Shown one piece after another: positions 5,236 to 9,556 of a stretch of DNA of 10,662 nt (the stretch's first letter is position 1; each line of letters starts with the position of its first letter). The translations under genes were made by a program, and so were the position numbers. The stretch covers positions 1 to 10,662 of the IMG/VR virus record IMGVR_UViG_2703718871_000019; one strand, given 5' to 3'. The DNA is from a virus. Taxonomy: Duplodnaviria; Heunggongvirae; Uroviricota; Caudoviricetes. The notes under the pieces were generated by a model. The model had not been told where the DNA came from. It searched no databases and saw only the letters and a list, made by a program, of their open reading frames with translations.

Positions 5236-5793
5236 TCAACAATGAATTTTTAGTAATTGCTCCACAGTCATATTTTTAATTGCGCTCCGGTTTACAAGAG
5301 TCCAGCCTTGTTTCTCCAGATAAAACTGGAAGGTATCCAGGGTGCAGACCATTGCACCATCAGGAACGGTTTCAGTGAATTTGATATTGCCGTGTTCGTC
5401 GAGACGGATAACCAGGGTACGTCCGTCCCCGTGAATCATTTTGTCGGGAGACGGGGCGTTATTCTGGCGCAGTTCTTTCTCCATGCGATCGAACTCAGCG
5501 ATGTAGGCTTCTTTAAATGCAGCGGCTTTTTTGCCGGTGAAGCCCATCACCAGGAAAACGAAGCCGTTTTTGGTGATTTGGTACATAGGGAGTTTGCGCC
5601 CGGTTGAGTCGGTATATTCACTGGGCGAAAAATTTCGCTCAGTGAATTCTGCTGAACAGTCTAGACGTGAAATTTTTGCCAGTACATCTTTGTGTGGTTT
5701 CCGGAAATACTCGGCAACAGCTAAAGAGGATGTAACAGCACGCCCATTGGCGATAGTAATTTCAGGGTGAGAAAGGGCAGGGATAGTAGCCAT
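5236..5793 (-). CDS. Rha-family phage regulatory protein (Phage_pRha domain)
   Basis: The segment AVTSSLAVAEYFRKPHKDVLAKI...LPMYQITKNGFVFLVMGFTGKKAAAFKEAYIAEFDRME matches the Rha domain pattern. The track ORF runs to 6087 (283 aa), but the Rha domain begins at about aa 110 and an intrinsic terminator lies inside the extension. I therefore prefer the internal start at 5793 (GGAGG 8 nt upstream, product MATIPALSHPEITIANGR..., 185 aa). Alternative starts are 5820 or 6087. Confidence 0.75.
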   Translation of the reverse strand: MATIPALSHPEITIANGRAVTSSLAVAEYFRKPHKDVLAKISRLDCSAEFTERNFSPSEYTDSTGRKLPMYQITKNGFVFLVMGFTGKKAAAFKEAYIAEFDRMEKELRQNNAPSPDKMIHGDGRTLVIRLDEHGNIKFTETVPDGAMVCTLDTFQFYLEKQGWTLVNRSAIKNMTVEQLLKIHC

Positions 5794-5957
5794 GATGGCA
5801 GCCTCCATGATGAATTTCATTAACTCACCACCGGAGGTAGCAATCTCATGGGTGGTGAGACGCACAGGGTTGCTACAACCGGTCATCATGGAACCCGGCC
5901 AGCCTTGCGGCTGCCCTGCACGCCCCACCATAATCTGAATGTGGCTGTGCATTACGC

Positions 5958-5982
5958 ATAAAAAAACCGCCTGAGCGCGGTT
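5958..5982 (-). terminator. Rho-independent terminator for leftward transcription (tL1-like)
   Basis: On the minus strand: stem AACCGC / GCGGTT with loop GCTCAG, followed by T-run TTTTTTT-AT (plus strand A7 at 5960-5966 precedes the hairpin at 5965-5982). No T-run follows on the plus strand, so it is unidirectional. Confidence 0.55.
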
Positions 5983-6574
5983 ATGCGCCATGATGAACAT
6001 CGGGGTAGCAATCCCGGCACCCGCTTTATGAGGTGCAGGTGCACTATAATTCCACCCGTTCTGGTTTTCAATAGCTACATTCAACATTTTCTCTTACCTT
6101 TCATCACCGAAGTGAACTTTGTCGATGCAGTGCCTGGTGCCTCCAGGTGACGTTAACCAGTTAACAATTAACGCCGGAATACAGAAGTATGCCCGTTACG
6201 CCCCGTAAAAGACCACTTTACGGTTTTAACTGTTCCGCGTGCGCTTAGCCGCATTCACCGCATCACAAAATTCACTTTAAAAAGGGTGGCAGAGCAGTCA
6301 CGGAGTAGAACTGATGCCACCAAAGACTACACATGGGTATTGTGGCGGGGCTGTCACTTAAGCGTATGGTCAACCTGACAACCCGGTGCATTTTCTGGAG
6401 CAATGGAGGAAACCCCAGCCATACTTACCGCCGCGCCATTTCGCGGATTGCCACAACCGGAAGCGCACGGTCGAAGAAATCTAACGACAAGCCTTCTAAG
6501 GGAAAGAGCTTCGCCGTACGCTTTCGCGTTGTGTGCCTGCTTTTAACCACGTCAGGCGAGGTGGTTTCCGTCGT

Positions 6575-6624
6575 TCCCCAACGACAGGAAATCTGTATAA
6601 TCTGGATATCCCCAACAACAGGAA
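6575..6624. promoter_or_regulatory. Two 16-bp direct repeats TCCCCAAC(G/A)ACAGGAA (6575-6590, 6609-6624) flanking a TG-TATAAT element (6594-6601)
   Basis: The repeats are 15/16 identical and 34 bp apart, which is not a multiple of 3 and argues against coding. A perfect -10 hexamer lies between them. Candidate promoter and regulator binding sites upstream of the + strand 2-TM gene. Confidence 0.4.
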
Positions 6625-6799
6625 GGTGTTTTATATGGTGGTTCAAAAGAATTGTTCAGGTACTGGTAAGCCTGCGGACAGGGCGGACATTCCGAATACC
6701 AGGAAACATATACCTGAGAAAAACATACGACCAAAACCATCTCCAGCTCCTTCAGAGGAGAGGGGGAACAGCAACAATCAAGCAAGCAGGTGATGATAT

Positions 6800-7246
6800 A
6801 TGGACCGGGATGATATTCTTGACAGGGTTTTATATGGCTATTTTCTTGAACAACTATTCTCTGTAGCGACTGGTCGTCTCGATAAACTTCTCTCAGTGGT
6901 GAGTATTATCCTCGGTTCATCTGTCATTGGTGGATTTATTCCTGAAGTTTCTGGAGTTCTCATTGTTGTGATAGCAACCGTTCAAACGATTTACGGATTC
7001 GGACAAAAGTCAGGTAACGCAATGAGAAAATCCGCAGAATATCTGCAGCTTTATGATGATGCAGAAAAATATTCCGATTCGGAATTGAAAATTCAGTTAA
7101 AGCTTCTGGAAAAAACAGATGATAATATTTGGTCGTCGCTTAAAGATATCGCAATCTTAAAAACCCGGATCAAAATAGGAATCTCCGTAGAACAACAAGA
7201 GAAACTGTCTGCAAAATCCAAATTGATGCGATTCCTTTGTGGTTAG
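6800..7246 (+). CDS. AT-rich moron gene encoding a 148-aa two-TM membrane protein with a charged helical C-terminal tail; candidate superinfection-exclusion or abortive-infection effector
   Basis: AGGTGA SD 7 nt upstream of the ATG. GC content is about 33-35 percent against about 50 percent in flanks (two 60-nt lines counted by hand). Predicted TM1 LLSVVSIILGSSVIGGFI and TM2 VLIVVIATVQTIYGF, followed by a Lys/Glu-rich helical tail. It runs opposite to the surrounding leftward operon, in the position that sieB occupies in Rac-type prophages. No family recognised with certainty. Confidence 0.6.
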   Translation: MDRDDILDRVLYGYFLEQLFSVATGRLDKLLSVVSIILGSSVIGGFIPEVSGVLIVVIATVQTIYGFGQKSGNAMRKSAEYLQLYDDAEKYSDSELKIQLKLLEKTDDNIWSSLKDIAILKTRIKIGISVEQQEKLSAKSKLMRFLCG

Positions 7247-7344
7247 GAATACCCAGATTGTTAAAGATCATGCCGGATGCTTACCCGTGTCCGGCGAACG
7301 TATTCCACTTCGCCTGTGGAGAACTCTTTAATTACTAACCTTCA

Positions 7345-7497
7345 TCAGTCAGAGTTTCTTGCTAACCAGCGACGCGCGCCAGCTGCGGTTTTAAACGTTT
7401 TGCTTCTGGTATACGTCATCGCGGTAAACGTGCCGTCCTGGTTGGGAAACACGCCGCATACCAGAGATTCGTTGTTGCCAAGATTGAGCGTATCCAT
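7345..7497 (-). CDS. Small prophage protein, YdaF-like (DUF1391-like), 50 aa
   Basis: Below the 60-aa cutoff of the track and found by manual translation: ATG at 7497 with GAGGT SD 5 nt upstream, product MDTLNLGNNESLVCGVFPNQDGTFTAMTYTRSKTFKTAAGARRWLARNSD, stop TGA at 7345-7347. It resembles my recollection of Rac YdaF and lies between the repressor operon and the sieB-position gene as in Rac. The overlapping + strand ORF 7277..7537 is rejected. Confidence 0.5.
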   Translation of the reverse strand: MDTLNLGNNESLVCGVFPNQDGTFTAMTYTRSKTFKTAAGARRWLARNSD

Positions 7498-7701
7498 GTT
7501 GACCTCATTTACCCTTAACGCCGGGTCGCGGAACTAAAAACCTGCTGCGCTGTTATACAAAGTATTCCCGCCGTCATGTTCATACGCCTCGGGCTGGCTA
7601 CTTAACCCCTGACCACTGCCGGGTAACTCGAAGTATTGCCTGGCGTTCTGTGGGGCGGGGGGGTTGATGAATGAACAATACCACTACTATTTAATTATGT
7701 A

Positions 7702-7716
7702 AATAGCAGTGCTATT
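7702..7716. promoter_or_regulatory. Perfect palindrome AATAGCA-g-TGCTATT; candidate OL-type operator over a leftward early promoter
   Basis: 7-bp arms are exact reverse complements. The half-site TGCTATT recurs twice in the repressor/cro intergenic region (8808-8814, 8833-8839). It sits just downstream of the repressor-operon terminator and upstream of the ydaF-like gene, with -35/-10-like hexamers nearby on the minus strand (TTGCCA; TATTGT). Confidence 0.4.
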
Positions 7717-7724
7717 ATCGTGGC

Positions 7725-7750
7725 AAGAAAAAAACCACCCGAAGGTGGTT
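7725..7750 (-). terminator. Rho-independent terminator ending the repressor-antitoxin-toxin operon
   Basis: On the minus strand: AACCACC-TTCG-GGTGGTT (7-bp stem, UUCG tetraloop) followed by TTTTTTTCT, 15 bp downstream of the toxin stop codon. No T-run follows on the plus strand. Confidence 0.7.
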
Positions 7751-7764
7751 GTTGACAGGAAGGA

Positions 7765-8055
7765 TTAACAGGTTTTGTTTGGATACTGTCTTCGTGAGTG
7801 AACTACATTTACGATCTCGATGTTAGATGCTGTTACTCGGTAAAGTATTATGTAGTTAGGATGAGTCACTATCTCACGAAGACTTGGAACTCTTTCGCTC
7901 GGTGGGTACAGATAAGGGTGTTCAGTAAGTGACAAAACTGATGTTTCAATGCGTATTTTTAGTCTACGTGCAGCGGGAGGGTTTTCCTTAGCAATATAGG
8001 CTACGATCTGACGTAAATCATCACGTGCAGAAGGTAGCCATAAAATGGGCAGCAT
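7765..8055 (-). CDS. ParE/RelE-superfamily type II toxin (ParE2-like)
   Basis: 96 aa. N-terminus MLPILWLPSARDDLRQIVAYIAKENPPAARRL and C-terminal ...IEIVNVVHSRRQYP are typical of ParE toxins. Its start overlaps the stop of the upstream antitoxin (TAATG). Confidence 0.85.
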   Translation of the reverse strand: MLPILWLPSARDDLRQIVAYIAKENPPAARRLKIRIETSVLSLTEHPYLYPPSERVPSLREIVTHPNYIILYRVTASNIEIVNVVHSRRQYPNKTC

Positions 8056-8246
8056 TACTCACTCCTGTTCGTTGCAGCTAATTGAGCAATAAGGTTTTCC
8101 ATTTCAGCCATTACTTCGTCATGTGGAATTGCAGGACGGGGATCTGAGAGGCTTGCTGCCACTTTGGCTCGCAACCATTCGTTATAGCTGTTTTCTTGTT
8201 CGACTGTTTCAAATTCAGAAATTATCGGGGAAAGGGCTGTACTCAT
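8055..8246 (-). CDS. Small type II antitoxin, PaaA2-like, partner of the ParE-type toxin
   Basis: 63 aa, acidic, immediately upstream of and translationally coupled to the toxin. GGAGG SD 6 nt upstream of the ATG. Size and arrangement match the PaaA2 antitoxin of the O157 paaR2-paaA2-parE2 module as I recall it. Confidence 0.7.
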   Translation of the reverse strand: MSTALSPIISEFETVEQENSYNEWLRAKVAASLSDPRPAIPHDEVMAEMENLIAQLAATNRSE

Positions 8247-8263
8247 GTTTTGACCTCCTCAGA

Positions 8264-8764
8264 TTAGGCGCGACGACCCTTTTGCGCGGCTAGCCATCGC
8301 GCAACGATTTCTTCAATTGATTCTTTTTTCTCCTTCATTTCCTTAAGCATTTTCTCTTTATCTTCTTTGGGGAAAGCCCTGAACGTCTGGAGCAAATCCC
8401 GCTCCATGGGGTCTATATTAAACGGAAGTTCGTTTTCCGATTGTTCCATATCTGCAGATATAGTGACAACATTGTCCTCCCCAGATTCTTGGGGATACAT
8501 CCTTACAATTTGTAACAACTCGGCCATATCTGGTCTGATTGACTCGGGAGGAACTTGCAGCAACCCTGCGAACTTGATAACAGCCTCAAGATTTAAAGGT
8601 GTCTGACCATTTAGATAATGGCTTACAGCTCCCTGTGTCGAAAATCCCAGAATTTCTGCCGCACGCTCTTGGGTTAACCCTAGTTGATTTTTTTTCGCCG
8701 TCCAGATTTCTTTCAGTCTCTGGGCGGCTTGCAGGTCGATCTCTGACAGGGATTTTCTTTTCAT
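8264..8764 (-). CDS. HTH (XRE/cI-type) transcriptional regulator, PaaR2/RacR-like; likely prophage immunity repressor and TA operon regulator
   Basis: 166 aa. N-terminal helix-turn-helix LGLTQERAAEILGFSTQGAVSHYLNGQ. No S24 peptidase domain is visible in the C-terminus. It is the first gene of the operon and is divergent from the cro-like gene across a repeat-rich operator region. Confidence 0.8.
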   Translation of the reverse strand: MKRKSLSEIDLQAAQRLKEIWTAKKNQLGLTQERAAEILGFSTQGAVSHYLNGQTPLNLEAVIKFAGLLQVPPESIRPDMAELLQIVRMYPQESGEDNVVTISADMEQSENELPFNIDPMERDLLQTFRAFPKEDKEKMLKEMKEKKESIEEIVARWLAAQKGRRA

Positions 8765-8871
8765 ACCTTCAATTCTAATAAGATTATTAATCTCTTTGAA
8801 ATAGTGATGCTATTTACTTTTAAAAATAACAATGCTATTAATGATCGTGATGACATCACATGAGGTGAACA
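8765..8871. promoter_or_regulatory. Divergent promoter/operator region between the repressor and the cro-like gene (OR analogue)
   Basis: AT-rich 107-bp gap containing two TGCTATT motifs (8808-8814, 8833-8839) and the perfect palindrome GTGATG-a-CATCAC (8847-8859) just upstream of the cro-like SD. Confidence 0.55.
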
Positions 8872-9147
8872 ATGAATCTTGGAGAATATTTGCATCATTC
8901 CGGTATAACTCAGAAGCATTTTGCTGAAATTGTTGGGGTAACCCAAGGGATGGTAAGCCATGTCATTACCGGACGGGCGAAACTTACGGGGGAAAAAATT
9001 TTACGCTGGTGCGAAGCAACAGGCTGGATAGTAACTCCGCACGAGATTGATAGCAGTACTTATCCCAACCCAACCGACGGCTTACCTGTCGAGTATCAGG
9101 CTAACACACAACCAGAGGCGGGGGTGATTCATGAAAATCAAGCATGA
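8872..9147 (+). CDS. Cro/YdaS-like HTH DNA-binding protein
   Basis: 91 aa with GAGGTGA SD. HTH segment QKHFAEIVGVTQGMVSHVITGRAKLTGEKI. Divergent from the repressor and first gene of the rightward operon. Confidence 0.75.
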   Translation: MNLGEYLHHSGITQKHFAEIVGVTQGMVSHVITGRAKLTGEKILRWCEATGWIVTPHEIDSSTYPNPTDGLPVEYQANTQPEAGVIHENQA

Positions 9148-9556
9148 ACACATCCGCATGGCAATGAATGCCTGGGCGTATCCAGACGGTGAGAAAGTTC
9201 CAGCAGCTGAAATAGCCCGGACTTATTTCGAGCTGGGGATGACGTTCCCGGAACTGTACGACGACAGCCATCCGGAAGCCCTGGCTCGTAATACCCAGAA
9301 AATTTTCCGCTGGGTGGAGAAGGACACGTCTGATGCTGTTGAAAAAATTCAGGCGCTGTTACCGGCGATCGAAAAGGCGATGCCGCCTTTGCTGGTGGCC
9401 CGTATGCGCAGTCACAGTTCTGAATATTACCGGGAGATCGTCGAACGACGGGATCGGCTGGTGAAAGATGTGGATGATTTTGTCGCTGTAGCGATCGCCT
9501 GGGGCACCCTGACTAACAGTGGTGGTCAGCCTGGTAATGCAGTTGTTGTGCATTGA
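9131..9556 (+). CDS. YdaT-like protein (cII-position regulator/toxin-like family)
   Basis: 141 aa, overlapping the cro-like gene by 17 nt. Size and position match Rac YdaT; the sequence-level resemblance is from memory only. Confidence 0.65.
   Translation: MKIKHEHIRMAMNAWAYPDGEKVPAAEIARTYFELGMTFPELYDDSHPEALARNTQKIFRWVEKDTSDAVEKIQALLPAIEKAMPPLLVARMRSHSSEYYREIVERRDRLVKDVDDFVAVAIAWGTLTNSGGQPGNAVVVH

Follow-up and report, generated by a model that had tools for sequence, protein, structure and literature searches.

The DNA analysed here (a stretch of 10,662 nucleotides, hereafter the window) contains the immunity region of a lambda-like (lambdoid) Escherichia coli prophage integrated at tRNA-Ser beside mtfA. 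In this region, a gene for a helix-turn-helix (HTH) regulator is followed by genes for a PaaA-family antitoxin and a ParE-family toxin. Such an arrangement raises two questions: whether the regulator serves the toxin-antitoxin (TA) pair or the prophage, and what the TA pair does in this position.

The operon and its products

A previous reading of the window from sequence only had placed a three-gene regulator-antitoxin-ParE module at positions 7765-8764. This was confirmed, as three minus-strand open reading frames (ORFs) were present at exactly the proposed positions, with family matches far beyond chance: the HTH regulator (166 aa, 8264-8764; hereafter the repressor), the PaaA-family antitoxin (63 aa, 8055-8246) and the ParE-family toxin (96 aa, 7765-8055). 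The genes follow each other on one strand in the order regulator, antitoxin and toxin, and the operon is closed by a single intrinsic terminator (7726-7750, minus strand), recognized by the 7-bp G+C-rich stem, UUCG loop and U7 tract at 7750-7733 and by its folding energy (−10.4 kcal/mol, z −2.4) and retained in the loci L007 and L008. Translational coupling had been proposed for the whole operon. The stop and start of the antitoxin and toxin genes share TAATG (8053-8057, minus strand), and this pair is therefore coupled, whereas the regulator and antitoxin genes do not overlap and are separated by a 17-nt spacer (8247-8263, minus strand) with the Shine-Dalgarno sequence GAGGAGG; the proposal thus holds for antitoxin and toxin only. 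The module is also divergent from a Cro-like gene (8872-9147, plus strand), and the 107 bp between them contain palindromic repeats. Its position is that of cI or RacR, as had been suggested: in the related prophage H118, integrated at the same mtfA/tRNA-Ser site, this slot holds racR.

No complete E. coli genome covered >84% of the window, and the closest complete relative, L001 (FHI_NMBU_10), was 100% identical over 7600-9200 only. In L001, the annotation shows no further repressor-like gene from int to terminase, the window's own genome being outside the collection. Sequenced phages gave short DNA matches only and, at the protein level, a ParE2-type toxin in phage Evi only.

The antitoxin is acidic, as previously noted (pI 4.4; 11 Asp and Glu versus 4 Lys and Arg residues). 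PaaA2 is its sole Pfam domain (E 1e-22), and it has no DNA-binding domain; it also matched TA_RelB_antitoxin in NCBIfam (E 4e-27) and PaaA2 in the PDB (3zbe, E 5e-23). The toxin is basic (pI 9.7) and matched ParE_toxin in Pfam (E 7e-18) and ParE2 in the PDB (5cw7, E 5e-36). The closest TA pair was that of L002, a second copy from O157:H7 that is presumably paaR1-paaA1-parE1 of CP-933M (83% identity for the antitoxin and 88% for the toxin). BLASTP-type comparison with PaaA2 of phage Evi and with ParE2, which the earlier reading had called for, gave identities of 71% and 65%, respectively, the latter over 92 aa. With a ParE toxin, a PaaA antitoxin encoded upstream of it, an HTH regulator as the first gene and a ydaS-like/ydaT context, the locus shares these features with PaaR-PaaA-ParE systems.

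The antitoxin and toxin ORFs were intact in all variants examined, and internal stops were absent from every variant of the toxin. The dN/dS values (0.06-0.13 for the antitoxin and 0.05-0.13 for the toxin) indicate purifying selection on paaA-parE. Many E. coli lambdoid prophages are defective and the model prophage CP-933P is itself cryptic, and one might consider the module to be decaying within such a prophage, its toxin no longer active. However, the intact ORFs and low dN/dS values argue against decay; moreover, L001 has genes for integrase, replication, Q, lysis and terminase, and a PaaR2-PaaA2-ParE2 version is present in the sequenced phage Evi. We consider a remnant extremely improbable.

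The organization of the operon would also fit the original 2010 view of such systems, in which the regulator is a dedicated third TA component (the DNA-binding module of a 'split antitoxin') whose main task is autoregulation of paaA-parE and which is not a prophage repressor. Gene order, close spacing and the one terminator agree with this view, as does an antitoxin without a DNA-binding domain. In addition, this type of regulator was found in 72 complete E. coli genomes, in all of which the TA pair was adjacent. O104:H4 strains and Shigella sonnei are among the pathogenic lineages that carry the locus.

Domain architecture of the repressor and the immunity cassette

The repressor is a chimera of a lambda-type cI N-terminal domain (NTD) and PaaR-type C-terminal helices. 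It matched HTH_3 in Pfam (E 1e-9) and, by phmmer, PDB chains of the lambda cI NTD (E 1e-9). Residues 2-90 are 52% identical (tblastn) to cI of the Stx2a phage Lyz12581Vzw, a protein annotated as LexA-family cI, and the NTD is 38% identical to that of lambda cI. Two acidic residues, E33 and E37, stand where, by our comparison, lambda cI has its positive-control residues E34 and D38 (pc mutants), and all members of the repressor family have the same recognition helix, TQGAVSHYLN. An AF2 model (pLDDT 76.8) predicted a five-helix, lambda-cI-like NTD (aa ~8-89), residues 90-113 as a disordered linker, and a C-terminus of 50 aa of predicted helix with the PaaR/DicA-type helix-Pro-long-helix arrangement (119-165). 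The best Foldseek matches of this model were lambda cI NTDs (TM 0.85-0.93, rmsd 1.1-1.5 Å). The repressor had no Peptidase_S24 (PF00717) match, and the S24 part was wholly missing in the alignment with the Lyz12581Vzw cI; RecA-dependent cleavage is therefore not expected.

At the other end of the protein, residues 123-166 are 55% identical to the C-terminus of PaaR2 (for PaaR2, the phage Evi protein was used, which begins with MQKKE as in the published sequence). The L002 regulator aligned with 47% identity over 87 aa, and no BLASTP alignment of residues 1-90 was obtained with either protein. The resemblance to paaR2-paaA2-parE2 suggested previously is thus real in that the three-component systems of O157:H7 are homologous; the regulator, however, is PaaR-like in its last ~44-55 residues only and cannot be regarded as a full-length PaaR2 orthologue. 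Its DNA-binding domain was likewise rejected as an orthologue of that of PaaR1/PaaR2, given the failure of aa 1-90 to align and the lack of DNA similarity over 8395-9056. Membership in the DicA family was also rejected, because only the C-terminal 56 aa aligned to the DicA model (NCBIfam NF007257, E 1.5e-7), with 31 bits versus a cutoff of 101 for a full-length match. The PaaR-type C-terminal module is common to the repressor, PaaR2 and the L002 and L004 regulators, and the Pro132 column is invariant in its alignment. A PDB search for a PaaR structure with the L004 regulator found none, the matches being NTDs of the 434 and P22 repressors only. We suppose that this short helical module, also present in PaaR1, PaaR2 and DicA, stands in for the S24 domain of cI; oligomerization is its probable function, since PaaR2 has been reported to be octameric.

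Comparison by blastn with L002 and L003 (the locus of UPEC 26-1) outlined a swapped immunity cassette at 8395-9056, comprising the repressor NTD and linker, the right operator region (OR) and the NTD of the Cro-like protein. These ~660 bp had no DNA similarity to the PaaR1-type loci, and both flanks matched. Homology spanned 7337/7352-8394, where the ydfA-like, toxin and antitoxin genes and the final ~43 regulator codons lie, and restarted at 9057, within the cro-like gene, to include its 3' part and what follows. The breakpoint of the chimera would lie near codon 123, at window position 8394. The Cro-like protein is 41% identical to its L002 counterpart, mostly in the C-terminal part, and its N-terminal part belongs to the swapped cassette. 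Proteins of 244-255 aa in which a complete PaaR1-type regulator comes after a cI-type NTD, and which have two HTH domains, were also identified and may be recombination intermediates. An exchange of immunity that keeps the C-terminal module and paaA-parE would be expected if the TA pair selects against recombinants that lose it, as proposed by Jurenas et al. (PMC8630535).

Operators, promoters and lytic-side genes

The palindrome AATAG-N5-CTATT occurred five times, compared with 0.55 matches expected, and none of 200 shuffles had as many. Three putative operators are located between the repressor and Cro-like genes. The OR1-like operator (AATAACAATGCTATT, 8825-8839) has one mismatch to AATAGCANTGCTATT, overlaps the −10 element of a putative PR and is kept in the 92% and 78% variants, whereas the OR2-like operator (AATAGTGATGCTATT, 8800-8814) adjoins the −35 elements of both a PRM-like promoter and the putative PR. 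A weak, candidate OR3-like site (AATAAGATTATTAAT, 8777-8791) lies between the −35 and −10 elements of the PRM-like promoter, 23 bp from OR2. It is degenerate in the window; its reverse complement has 11 of the 15 bases (counted by eye) of ATTAGTAAAACTATT, the third OR site of L009, L012 and L014, and it is kept in L007 and L008. On the far side of the toxin gene, where 7700-7720 had been flagged as a second site, the same palindromic repeats were indeed present at 7677-7716. They form an OL1-like operator (AATACCACTACTATT, 7677-7691) overlapping the −10 element of a PL-like promoter and an OL2-like operator (AATAGCAGTGCTATT, 7702-7716), a perfect palindrome, overlapping its −35 element. In the 92% and 78% variants, the operators keep their outer half-sites and differ in their centres, and every distant relative examined had the same motif as three OR and two OL sites. 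Multiple putative operators are hence found at a divergent PR/PRM and a distal PL, as in CI-type switches.

The PRM-like promoter (TTCAAA, 17 nt, TAGAAT; 8772-8800, minus strand) has 9 of 12 consensus matches. Its −10 element ends only 7 nt before the repressor ATG, and the repressor mRNA is therefore probably leaderless, as has been documented for paaR2 and cI (PMC8630535). The PL-like promoter (TTTACA, 17 nt, TATTGT, with TG; 7675-7703, minus strand) was found by the consensus scan and is directed toward the ydfA-like gene, dicB and an exonuclease gene. The putative PR (TTTACT, 17 nt, TATTAA; 8813-8841, plus strand) mirrors the layout of PL and was below the threshold of the scan, so that we only infer that it drives the Cro-like gene and YdaT. 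It should be noted that the scan of this region was not enriched over shuffles (4 promoters found versus 3.1 expected), and the promoter assignments therefore rest on geometry and analogy. A promoter-like site inside the regulator gene (8469-8440) was rejected as a TA-specific promoter, as it was indistinguishable from chance.

The Cro/YdaS-like HTH protein (91 aa) matched HTH_3 (E 4e-6) and phrog_35 (E 6e-21). The gene that follows (9131-9556, plus strand) encodes the CII analogue YdaT (Pfam YdaT_toxin; PDB 8bt1, E 1e-76), which has the PHROG label 'CII-like transcriptional activator' and is near-identical to YdaT of CP-933P (the 8bt1 protein) over residues 2-141. An OM-like candidate site for YdaT (GTGATTCATGAAAATCAA, 9124-9141) lies where the Cro-like gene ends, its position matching that of the OM site footprinted in CP-933P (PMC9986795). 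It has one mismatch to TTGATTN6AATCAA, and 0.09 such matches would be expected by chance; with up to three mismatches allowed, the search was uninformative (4 found versus 8.9 expected), and only the one-mismatch match is meaningful.

We consider it very likely that, overall, the 166-aa protein is the prophage repressor of a lambdoid switch, with paaA-parE as cargo in the rexAB slot that serves mainly for addiction. Its lambda-cI-type NTD would bind the 15-bp palindromes, three in OR, between the repressor and cro-like genes, and two in OL, just past the toxin gene and the terminator. Occupancy of OR1/OR2 and OL1/OL2 would cover PR and PL at their −35 and −10 elements, and the PRM-like promoter, with its −35 element adjoining OR2, would make a repressor-antitoxin-toxin mRNA. 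The Cro/YdaS-like protein and YdaT would complete a bistable switch of the CP-933P kind. The regulator itself is almost certainly the prophage repressor, because operators flank the module on both sides and relatives with the same operators lack the TA pair. Against a dedicated third TA component stand the further operators past the operon, which coincide with a PL-like promoter, and the relatives that share the recognition helix and the OR/OL layout but carry different cargo or no cargo. Furthermore, the regulator NTD is homologous to genuine cI repressors, its gene is divergent from cro-like/YdaT and upstream of replication genes, and published work has concluded that PaaR2 is the prophage repressor (PMC8630535). 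The third-component view thus appears highly improbable for this locus.

Role of the toxin-antitoxin pair and comparison with known systems

The interval between the repressor and OL is occupied by HigB/HigA in L012, by HipA_2 and DUF3037 in L014 (a pair matching PADLOC PDC-M66A/B, a candidate defence pair) and by nothing in L009. Because the same operators in relatives go with HigBA, with a candidate defence pair or with an empty slot, the TA pair appears to be cargo in the position of lambda rexAB. A broader reading is that recombination within the repressor gene created a natural chimera, in which a cI-type DNA-binding domain was placed on a PaaR/DicA-type module, immunity specificity was exchanged and the module and paaA-parE were retained, and that the slot between repressor and OL is a general, rexAB-equivalent site for TA or defence cargo (PaaA-ParE, HigBA and PDC-M66). 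We offer this combined reading tentatively, at somewhat less than an even chance.

In the lysogenic state, paaA-parE would be co-transcribed with the repressor, and PaaA, having no DNA-binding domain of its own, would neutralize ParE by direct binding. The most likely role of the TA pair would be addiction, stabilizing the immunity region or the prophage, and the toxin would be released after loss of the locus, not after ordinary induction. According to the account of Hallez (2010) given in PMC4803016, the PaaA-ParE complex partially represses the paaR promoter; the TA pair may therefore feed back on PRM, which a pure-cargo view omits.

The sequence-only reading had suggested a link between induction and toxin release. 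In such a case, once the repressor is off, PRM would be off, labile PaaA would decay and the freed ParE would arrest the growth of the induced cell or kill it. ClpAP and ClpXP degrade PaaA2, published data make the operon at least partly dependent on the repressor promoter, and the geometry here puts the TA genes on the PRM transcript. However, the TA genes of CP-933P have been reported to be transcribed appreciably in both switch states, and SOS-positive CP-933P cells, a readout of ParE2 activity, were alike between the states (0.88% versus 0.95%). A YdaT-activated PRE-type promoter would, moreover, transcribe the operon also when the lytic-side genes are on. We therefore regard induction-coupled killing as very unlikely, and such a link at this locus is speculation.

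It seems less far-fetched, albeit still rather unlikely, that paaA-parE is mainly an anti-phage module that acts from the lysogen by superinfection exclusion (abortive infection), like rexAB, and not mainly an addiction module. The rexAB-equivalent slot, which in relatives holds HigBA or the pair matching PDC-M66, would suit this role, as would co-transcription with the repressor, by which the TA pair would be on in lysogens. On the other hand, a PADLOC scan gave no match for the repressor, the antitoxin, the toxin or a 148-aa ORF, and the homologous RAE2 locus has been reported to stabilize a plasmid (addiction), with no detectable toxin activity in either switch state. An anti-phage role is compatible with the preferred explanation, and the two are not mutually exclusive.

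The locus reveals no new mechanism; it is a heteroimmune case of a known kind of system and modest in reach. It nevertheless gives the CP-933P model a heteroimmune sibling whose repressor is related to lambda cI by sequence and not by analogy alone, so that operator recognition and the positive-control contact at PRM become open to structure-guided prediction. Two ideas can, in addition, be put to a natural test here: that PaaA-ParE guards the immunity region against replacement, and that TA and defence cargo arrives repeatedly in the rexAB-equivalent slot.

A repressor in the cI slot together with a ParE TA pair has already been described in E. coli O157:H7, and the main idea of the earlier reading is in this sense not new. 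In prophage CP-933P, PaaR2 has been shown experimentally to be the analogue of CI, and paaA2-parE2 to lie within the immunity region; YdaS and YdaT were shown to be the analogues of Cro and CII, and OR/OL, bistability, leaderless mRNA and addiction have been published (Jurenas et al., 2021; PMC8630535). The locus in the window shares with the RAE2 locus of CP-933P/Sp12 of O157:H7 (paaR2-paaA2-parE2 plus ydaS-ydaT) the order and orientation of the three genes, divergent from ydaS-like/ydaT, the OR and OL flanking the module, the position of the OM-like site, a PRM-to-ATG geometry that fits a leaderless mRNA and a regulator without an S24 domain (Hallez, 2010; PMC8630535; PMC9986795). It differs in the N-terminal part of the Cro-like protein, in the length of the regulator (166 versus 123 aa for PaaR2), in its operators (AATAG-N5-CTATT versus GTTTAGTAA-type repeats) and in the DNA-binding domain, which is unrelated in sequence to that of PaaR2; PaaR2 is said to have no sequence similarity to CI, in contrast to the lambda-like NTD found here. 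The regulators of L002 and L003 also have a different NTD, with an HTH of the 434/P22-repressor type.

With lambda CI and the cI of Stx2a phages such as Lyz12581Vzw, the repressor shares the five-helix NTD and a basic N-terminal arm (MKRK here), and the lambda layout recurs in the divergent PRM/PR, three operators ~23-25 bp apart, a distal OL and cargo genes downstream on the PRM transcript. Unlike lambda CI, it has PaaR/DicA-type C-terminal helices and no S24 peptidase/dimerization domain that RecA could stimulate to autocleavage, and its operator sequence is not that of lambda. DicA (Qin) and RacR (Rac) are likewise short, non-S24 repressors found in this slot in related E. coli prophages; their loci, however, lack a PaaA-ParE pair, and the NTD here is cI-like. 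What sets this locus apart is a repressor with a different, lambda-cI-like DNA-binding domain, which would make it a heteroimmune sibling of CP-933P.

Organization and prophage setting of the three-gene operon

Three ORFs could be identified on the minus strand at exactly the positions proposed by the sequence-only reading, and their family matches agreed with the functions suggested for them: a regulator gene (8264-8764; 166 aa; HTH_3, E 1e-9), an antitoxin gene (8055-8246; 63 aa; Pfam PaaA2, E 1e-22; NCBIfam RelB-type antitoxin equivalog, E 4e-27; solved PaaA2, E 5e-23) and a toxin gene (7765-8055; 96 aa; Pfam ParE_toxin, E 7e-18; solved ParE2, E 5e-36). The antitoxin is acidic (pI 4.4), whereas the toxin is basic (pI 9.7). 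Translational coupling, previously suggested for the operon, was observed at the antitoxin-toxin junction, where the stop and start codons overlap (TAATG), but not between the regulator and antitoxin genes, which are separated by a 17-nt gap containing GAGGAGG. The expected terminator was also present, as a stem-loop with a U7 tract immediately 3' of the toxin stop. All toxin and antitoxin variants examined had intact ORFs, and dN/dS relative to the window genes (calculated only where dS was unsaturated) was 0.05-0.13 (toxin) and 0.06-0.13 (antitoxin), which argues against decay of the pair.

The prophage follows mtfA and a tRNA-Ser gene (892-981). From the integrase side, it encodes the integrase, a DUF4224 protein, an exonuclease, a DUF1482 protein, DicB, a Rha/Ash protein and a DUF1391 (ydfA-like) gene product, followed by the three-gene module and, divergently, a Cro-like HTH protein, YdaT and a DnaT-domain replication protein. 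Positions 7600-9200 are 100% identical to Escherichia coli FHI_NMBU_10, whose prophage continues with a P-like replication gene, RusA, an antiterminator, tRNAs, lysis genes and terminase. A second, conventional ParD/ParE pair was found in the nin-like region of that genome (L001, 26097-26659), beyond the span of the window. Coverage of the whole window was at most 84% in any complete genome of the collection, in which its particular mosaic was not represented. Among the neighboring genes, a 148-aa ORF at 6800-7246 on the plus strand, opposite to the leftward early genes, matched PHROG 6315 (unknown function) and had no Pfam or PADLOC match. By eye, its N-terminal half contains a hydrophobic stretch that could span a membrane; the ORF is also annotated in L004, a related locus, and may be a moron.

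A chimeric repressor and its predicted operators

The sequence-only reading likened the operon to paaR2-paaA2-parE2. Using the phage Evi regulator (starting MQKKE, as published) as the PaaR2 reference, we found that similarity of the regulator to PaaR2 is confined to residues 123-166 (55% identity), whereas residues 2-90 are cI-like: they share 52% identity with the N-terminal domain of the LexA-family cI of Stx2a phages and 38% with that of lambda cI. In the AlphaFold model (pLDDT 76.8), five N-terminal helices are followed by a disordered linker (90-113) and a C-terminal helix-proline-long helix, and the best structural matches of the model were lambda cI N-terminal domain chains (TM 0.85-0.93). 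No S24 peptidase domain was found in the regulator by domain search. It should be noted that phage Evi also carries a ParE2 gene (L005, 3501-3779; LR597642.1, 24917-25192) whose product is identical to the PDB ParE2 over 92 aa; the GenBank record annotates the regulator and antitoxin only.

DNA homology with PaaR1-type loci extends from 7337/7352 to 8394 and resumes at 9057, and no DNA similarity to these loci was found in the ∼660 bp between. Since this segment contains the repressor N-terminal domain, the operators and the Cro-like N-terminal domain, it is a swapped immunity cassette of the classical type, one of its breakpoints lying within the repressor gene.

The palindrome AATAGCANTGCTATT marks predicted sites in OR (8800-8814 and 8825-8839) and OL (7677-7691 and 7702-7716); five matches occur in the window versus 0.55 expected, a count reached by no shuffle. 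A degenerate third OR site (8777-8791) resembles the third OR site of relatives. In variants 92% and 78% identical over the repressor-plus-OR segment, the outer AATAG/CTATT bases are kept and the centers vary. A PRM-like promoter (TTCAAA-17 nt-TAGAAT) stops 7 nt short of the repressor ATG, a PL-like promoter (TTTACA-17 nt-TATTGT) overlaps the OL sites, and a PR with mirrored layout is readable in the sequence, albeit sub-threshold in the promoter scan. Because promoter-like matches in that scan were not enriched over shuffles, all three assignments are putative. In addition, the stretch between OR1 and the cro-like start codon contains GTGATGACATCAC, a perfect palindrome of 13 bp (8848-8860). 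The right half of this palindrome is conserved in L007 and L008; the palindrome differs from the AATAG-N5-CTATT operators and could be a site specific for the Cro-like protein. In Stx2a phage Lyz12581Vzw, the region between cI and cro contains AATAGTCTAGCTATT (L006, 2442-2456), with the same outer half-sites as the window operators, which fits the 52% identical N-terminal domain and the similar recognition helix (TQGAVSQLLN) of that phage.

A protein search revealed three groups of relatives. The first has the 166-aa architecture (E. coli, E. albertii and Shigella sonnei); the second (147-164 aa, one member from Salmonella enterica subsp. diarizonae) shares the N-terminal domain and has a related short helical C-terminal domain. 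Members of the third (244-255 aa; P0013, P0014, P0018, P0019 and P0020, from loci L009-L011 and L014-L015) carry a cI-type N-terminal domain followed by a complete PaaR1-type regulator (HTH plus PaaR C-terminal domain), that is, two tandem HTH domains, and are possible fusion intermediates on the way to the 166-aa chimera. All three groups share one unvarying recognition helix, TQGAVSHYLN. Every relative locus fetched has three AATAG-N5-CTATT sites between the regulator and the divergent cro-like/YdaT pair and two more downstream of the gene or genes following the regulator. Given this constant layout and the varying downstream genes, the regulator is almost certainly a prophage repressor with OR and OL, as judged from comparative sequence evidence.

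Variable cargo between the repressor gene and OL

The slot after the regulator is empty in L009-L011. In a prophage of S. enterica subsp. diarizonae whose repressor is related and whose operators are the same, it holds HigB and an HTH antitoxin (HigB/HigA-type; L012 and L013, 4612-5339). A HipA_2 and DUF3037 pair occupies it in L014 (4787-6360) and L015 (2298-3871), matching the PADLOC candidate defence system PDC-M66A/B (E 2e-13 and 5e-19). With contents varying in this way next to the same operators, the toxin-antitoxin pair is one alternative among several cargos that occupy the position of lambda rexAB. This repressor type was detected in 72 of 5426 complete E. coli genomes, all 72 of which have the toxin-antitoxin pair; PaaA-ParE homologues overall were present in 842 complete E. 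coli genomes.

L004 is 93.5% identical to the window over 6113-7923 and then diverges (window 7765-7923 compared with L004 3733-3888), so that a recombination breakpoint lies within the toxin gene. L004 thus encodes a mosaic toxin, ParE2-like in its N-terminal part and window-like in its C-terminal part.

Relationship to CP-933P

Three-component paaR-paaA-parE systems in O157:H7 were reported by Hallez et al. (2010), as cited in PMC4803016 and PMC8630535. The central proposal of the sequence-only reading, that a regulator in the cI position governs both lysogeny and the toxin, has already been published for CP-933P, a cryptic prophage in which paaR2-paaA2-parE2 lies within the immunity region and PaaR2 functions as a CI analogue (Jurenas et al., 2021; PMC8630535). 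PaaR2 is translated from a leaderless mRNA, binds OR-type and OL-type operators and lacks an autocleavage domain; YdaS and YdaT are the Cro and CII analogues, the immunity region shows bistability and the toxin-antitoxin pair acts as an addiction module (PMC8630535). On the other hand, the suggested link between prophage induction and toxin release is unsupported in this model locus, as no difference in SOS-positive cells was found between the two transcriptional states (PMC8630535).

In the proposed mechanism, the window locus would form a CI-like switch run by a chimeric repressor that would not be cleavable, and the addictive cargo paaA-parE would be transcribed from PRM along with the repressor. 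If the prophage can be induced, this would require an antirepressor or another route. A 283-aa protein (5236-6087, minus strand) combines Ash and Rha domains, has antirepressor PHROG matches and is a candidate for inducing a prophage whose repressor lacks an autocleavage domain. FHI_NMBU_10, otherwise the closest genome, does not encode it.

The toxin is 88% identical to the non-ParE2 copy of O157:H7 (L002) and 65% to ParE2, and the antitoxin 83% to the L002 copy and 71% to PaaA2. The L002 toxin is presumably ParE1 of CP-933M. The YdaT operator, TTGATTN6AATCAA, is located at the end of ydaS (PMC9986795), and a similar predicted site (OM-like) occurs in the window at 9124-9141 with one mismatch (0.09 expected by chance). 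What is modestly new here is the chimeric repressor, its double-HTH relatives and the slot with its variable cargo, which are worth a note without a claim of novelty. The window YdaT aligns near-identically with the crystallised CP-933P protein (PDB 8bt1, E 1e-76), and the locus is a real, well-described feature, a heteroimmune member of the published kind.
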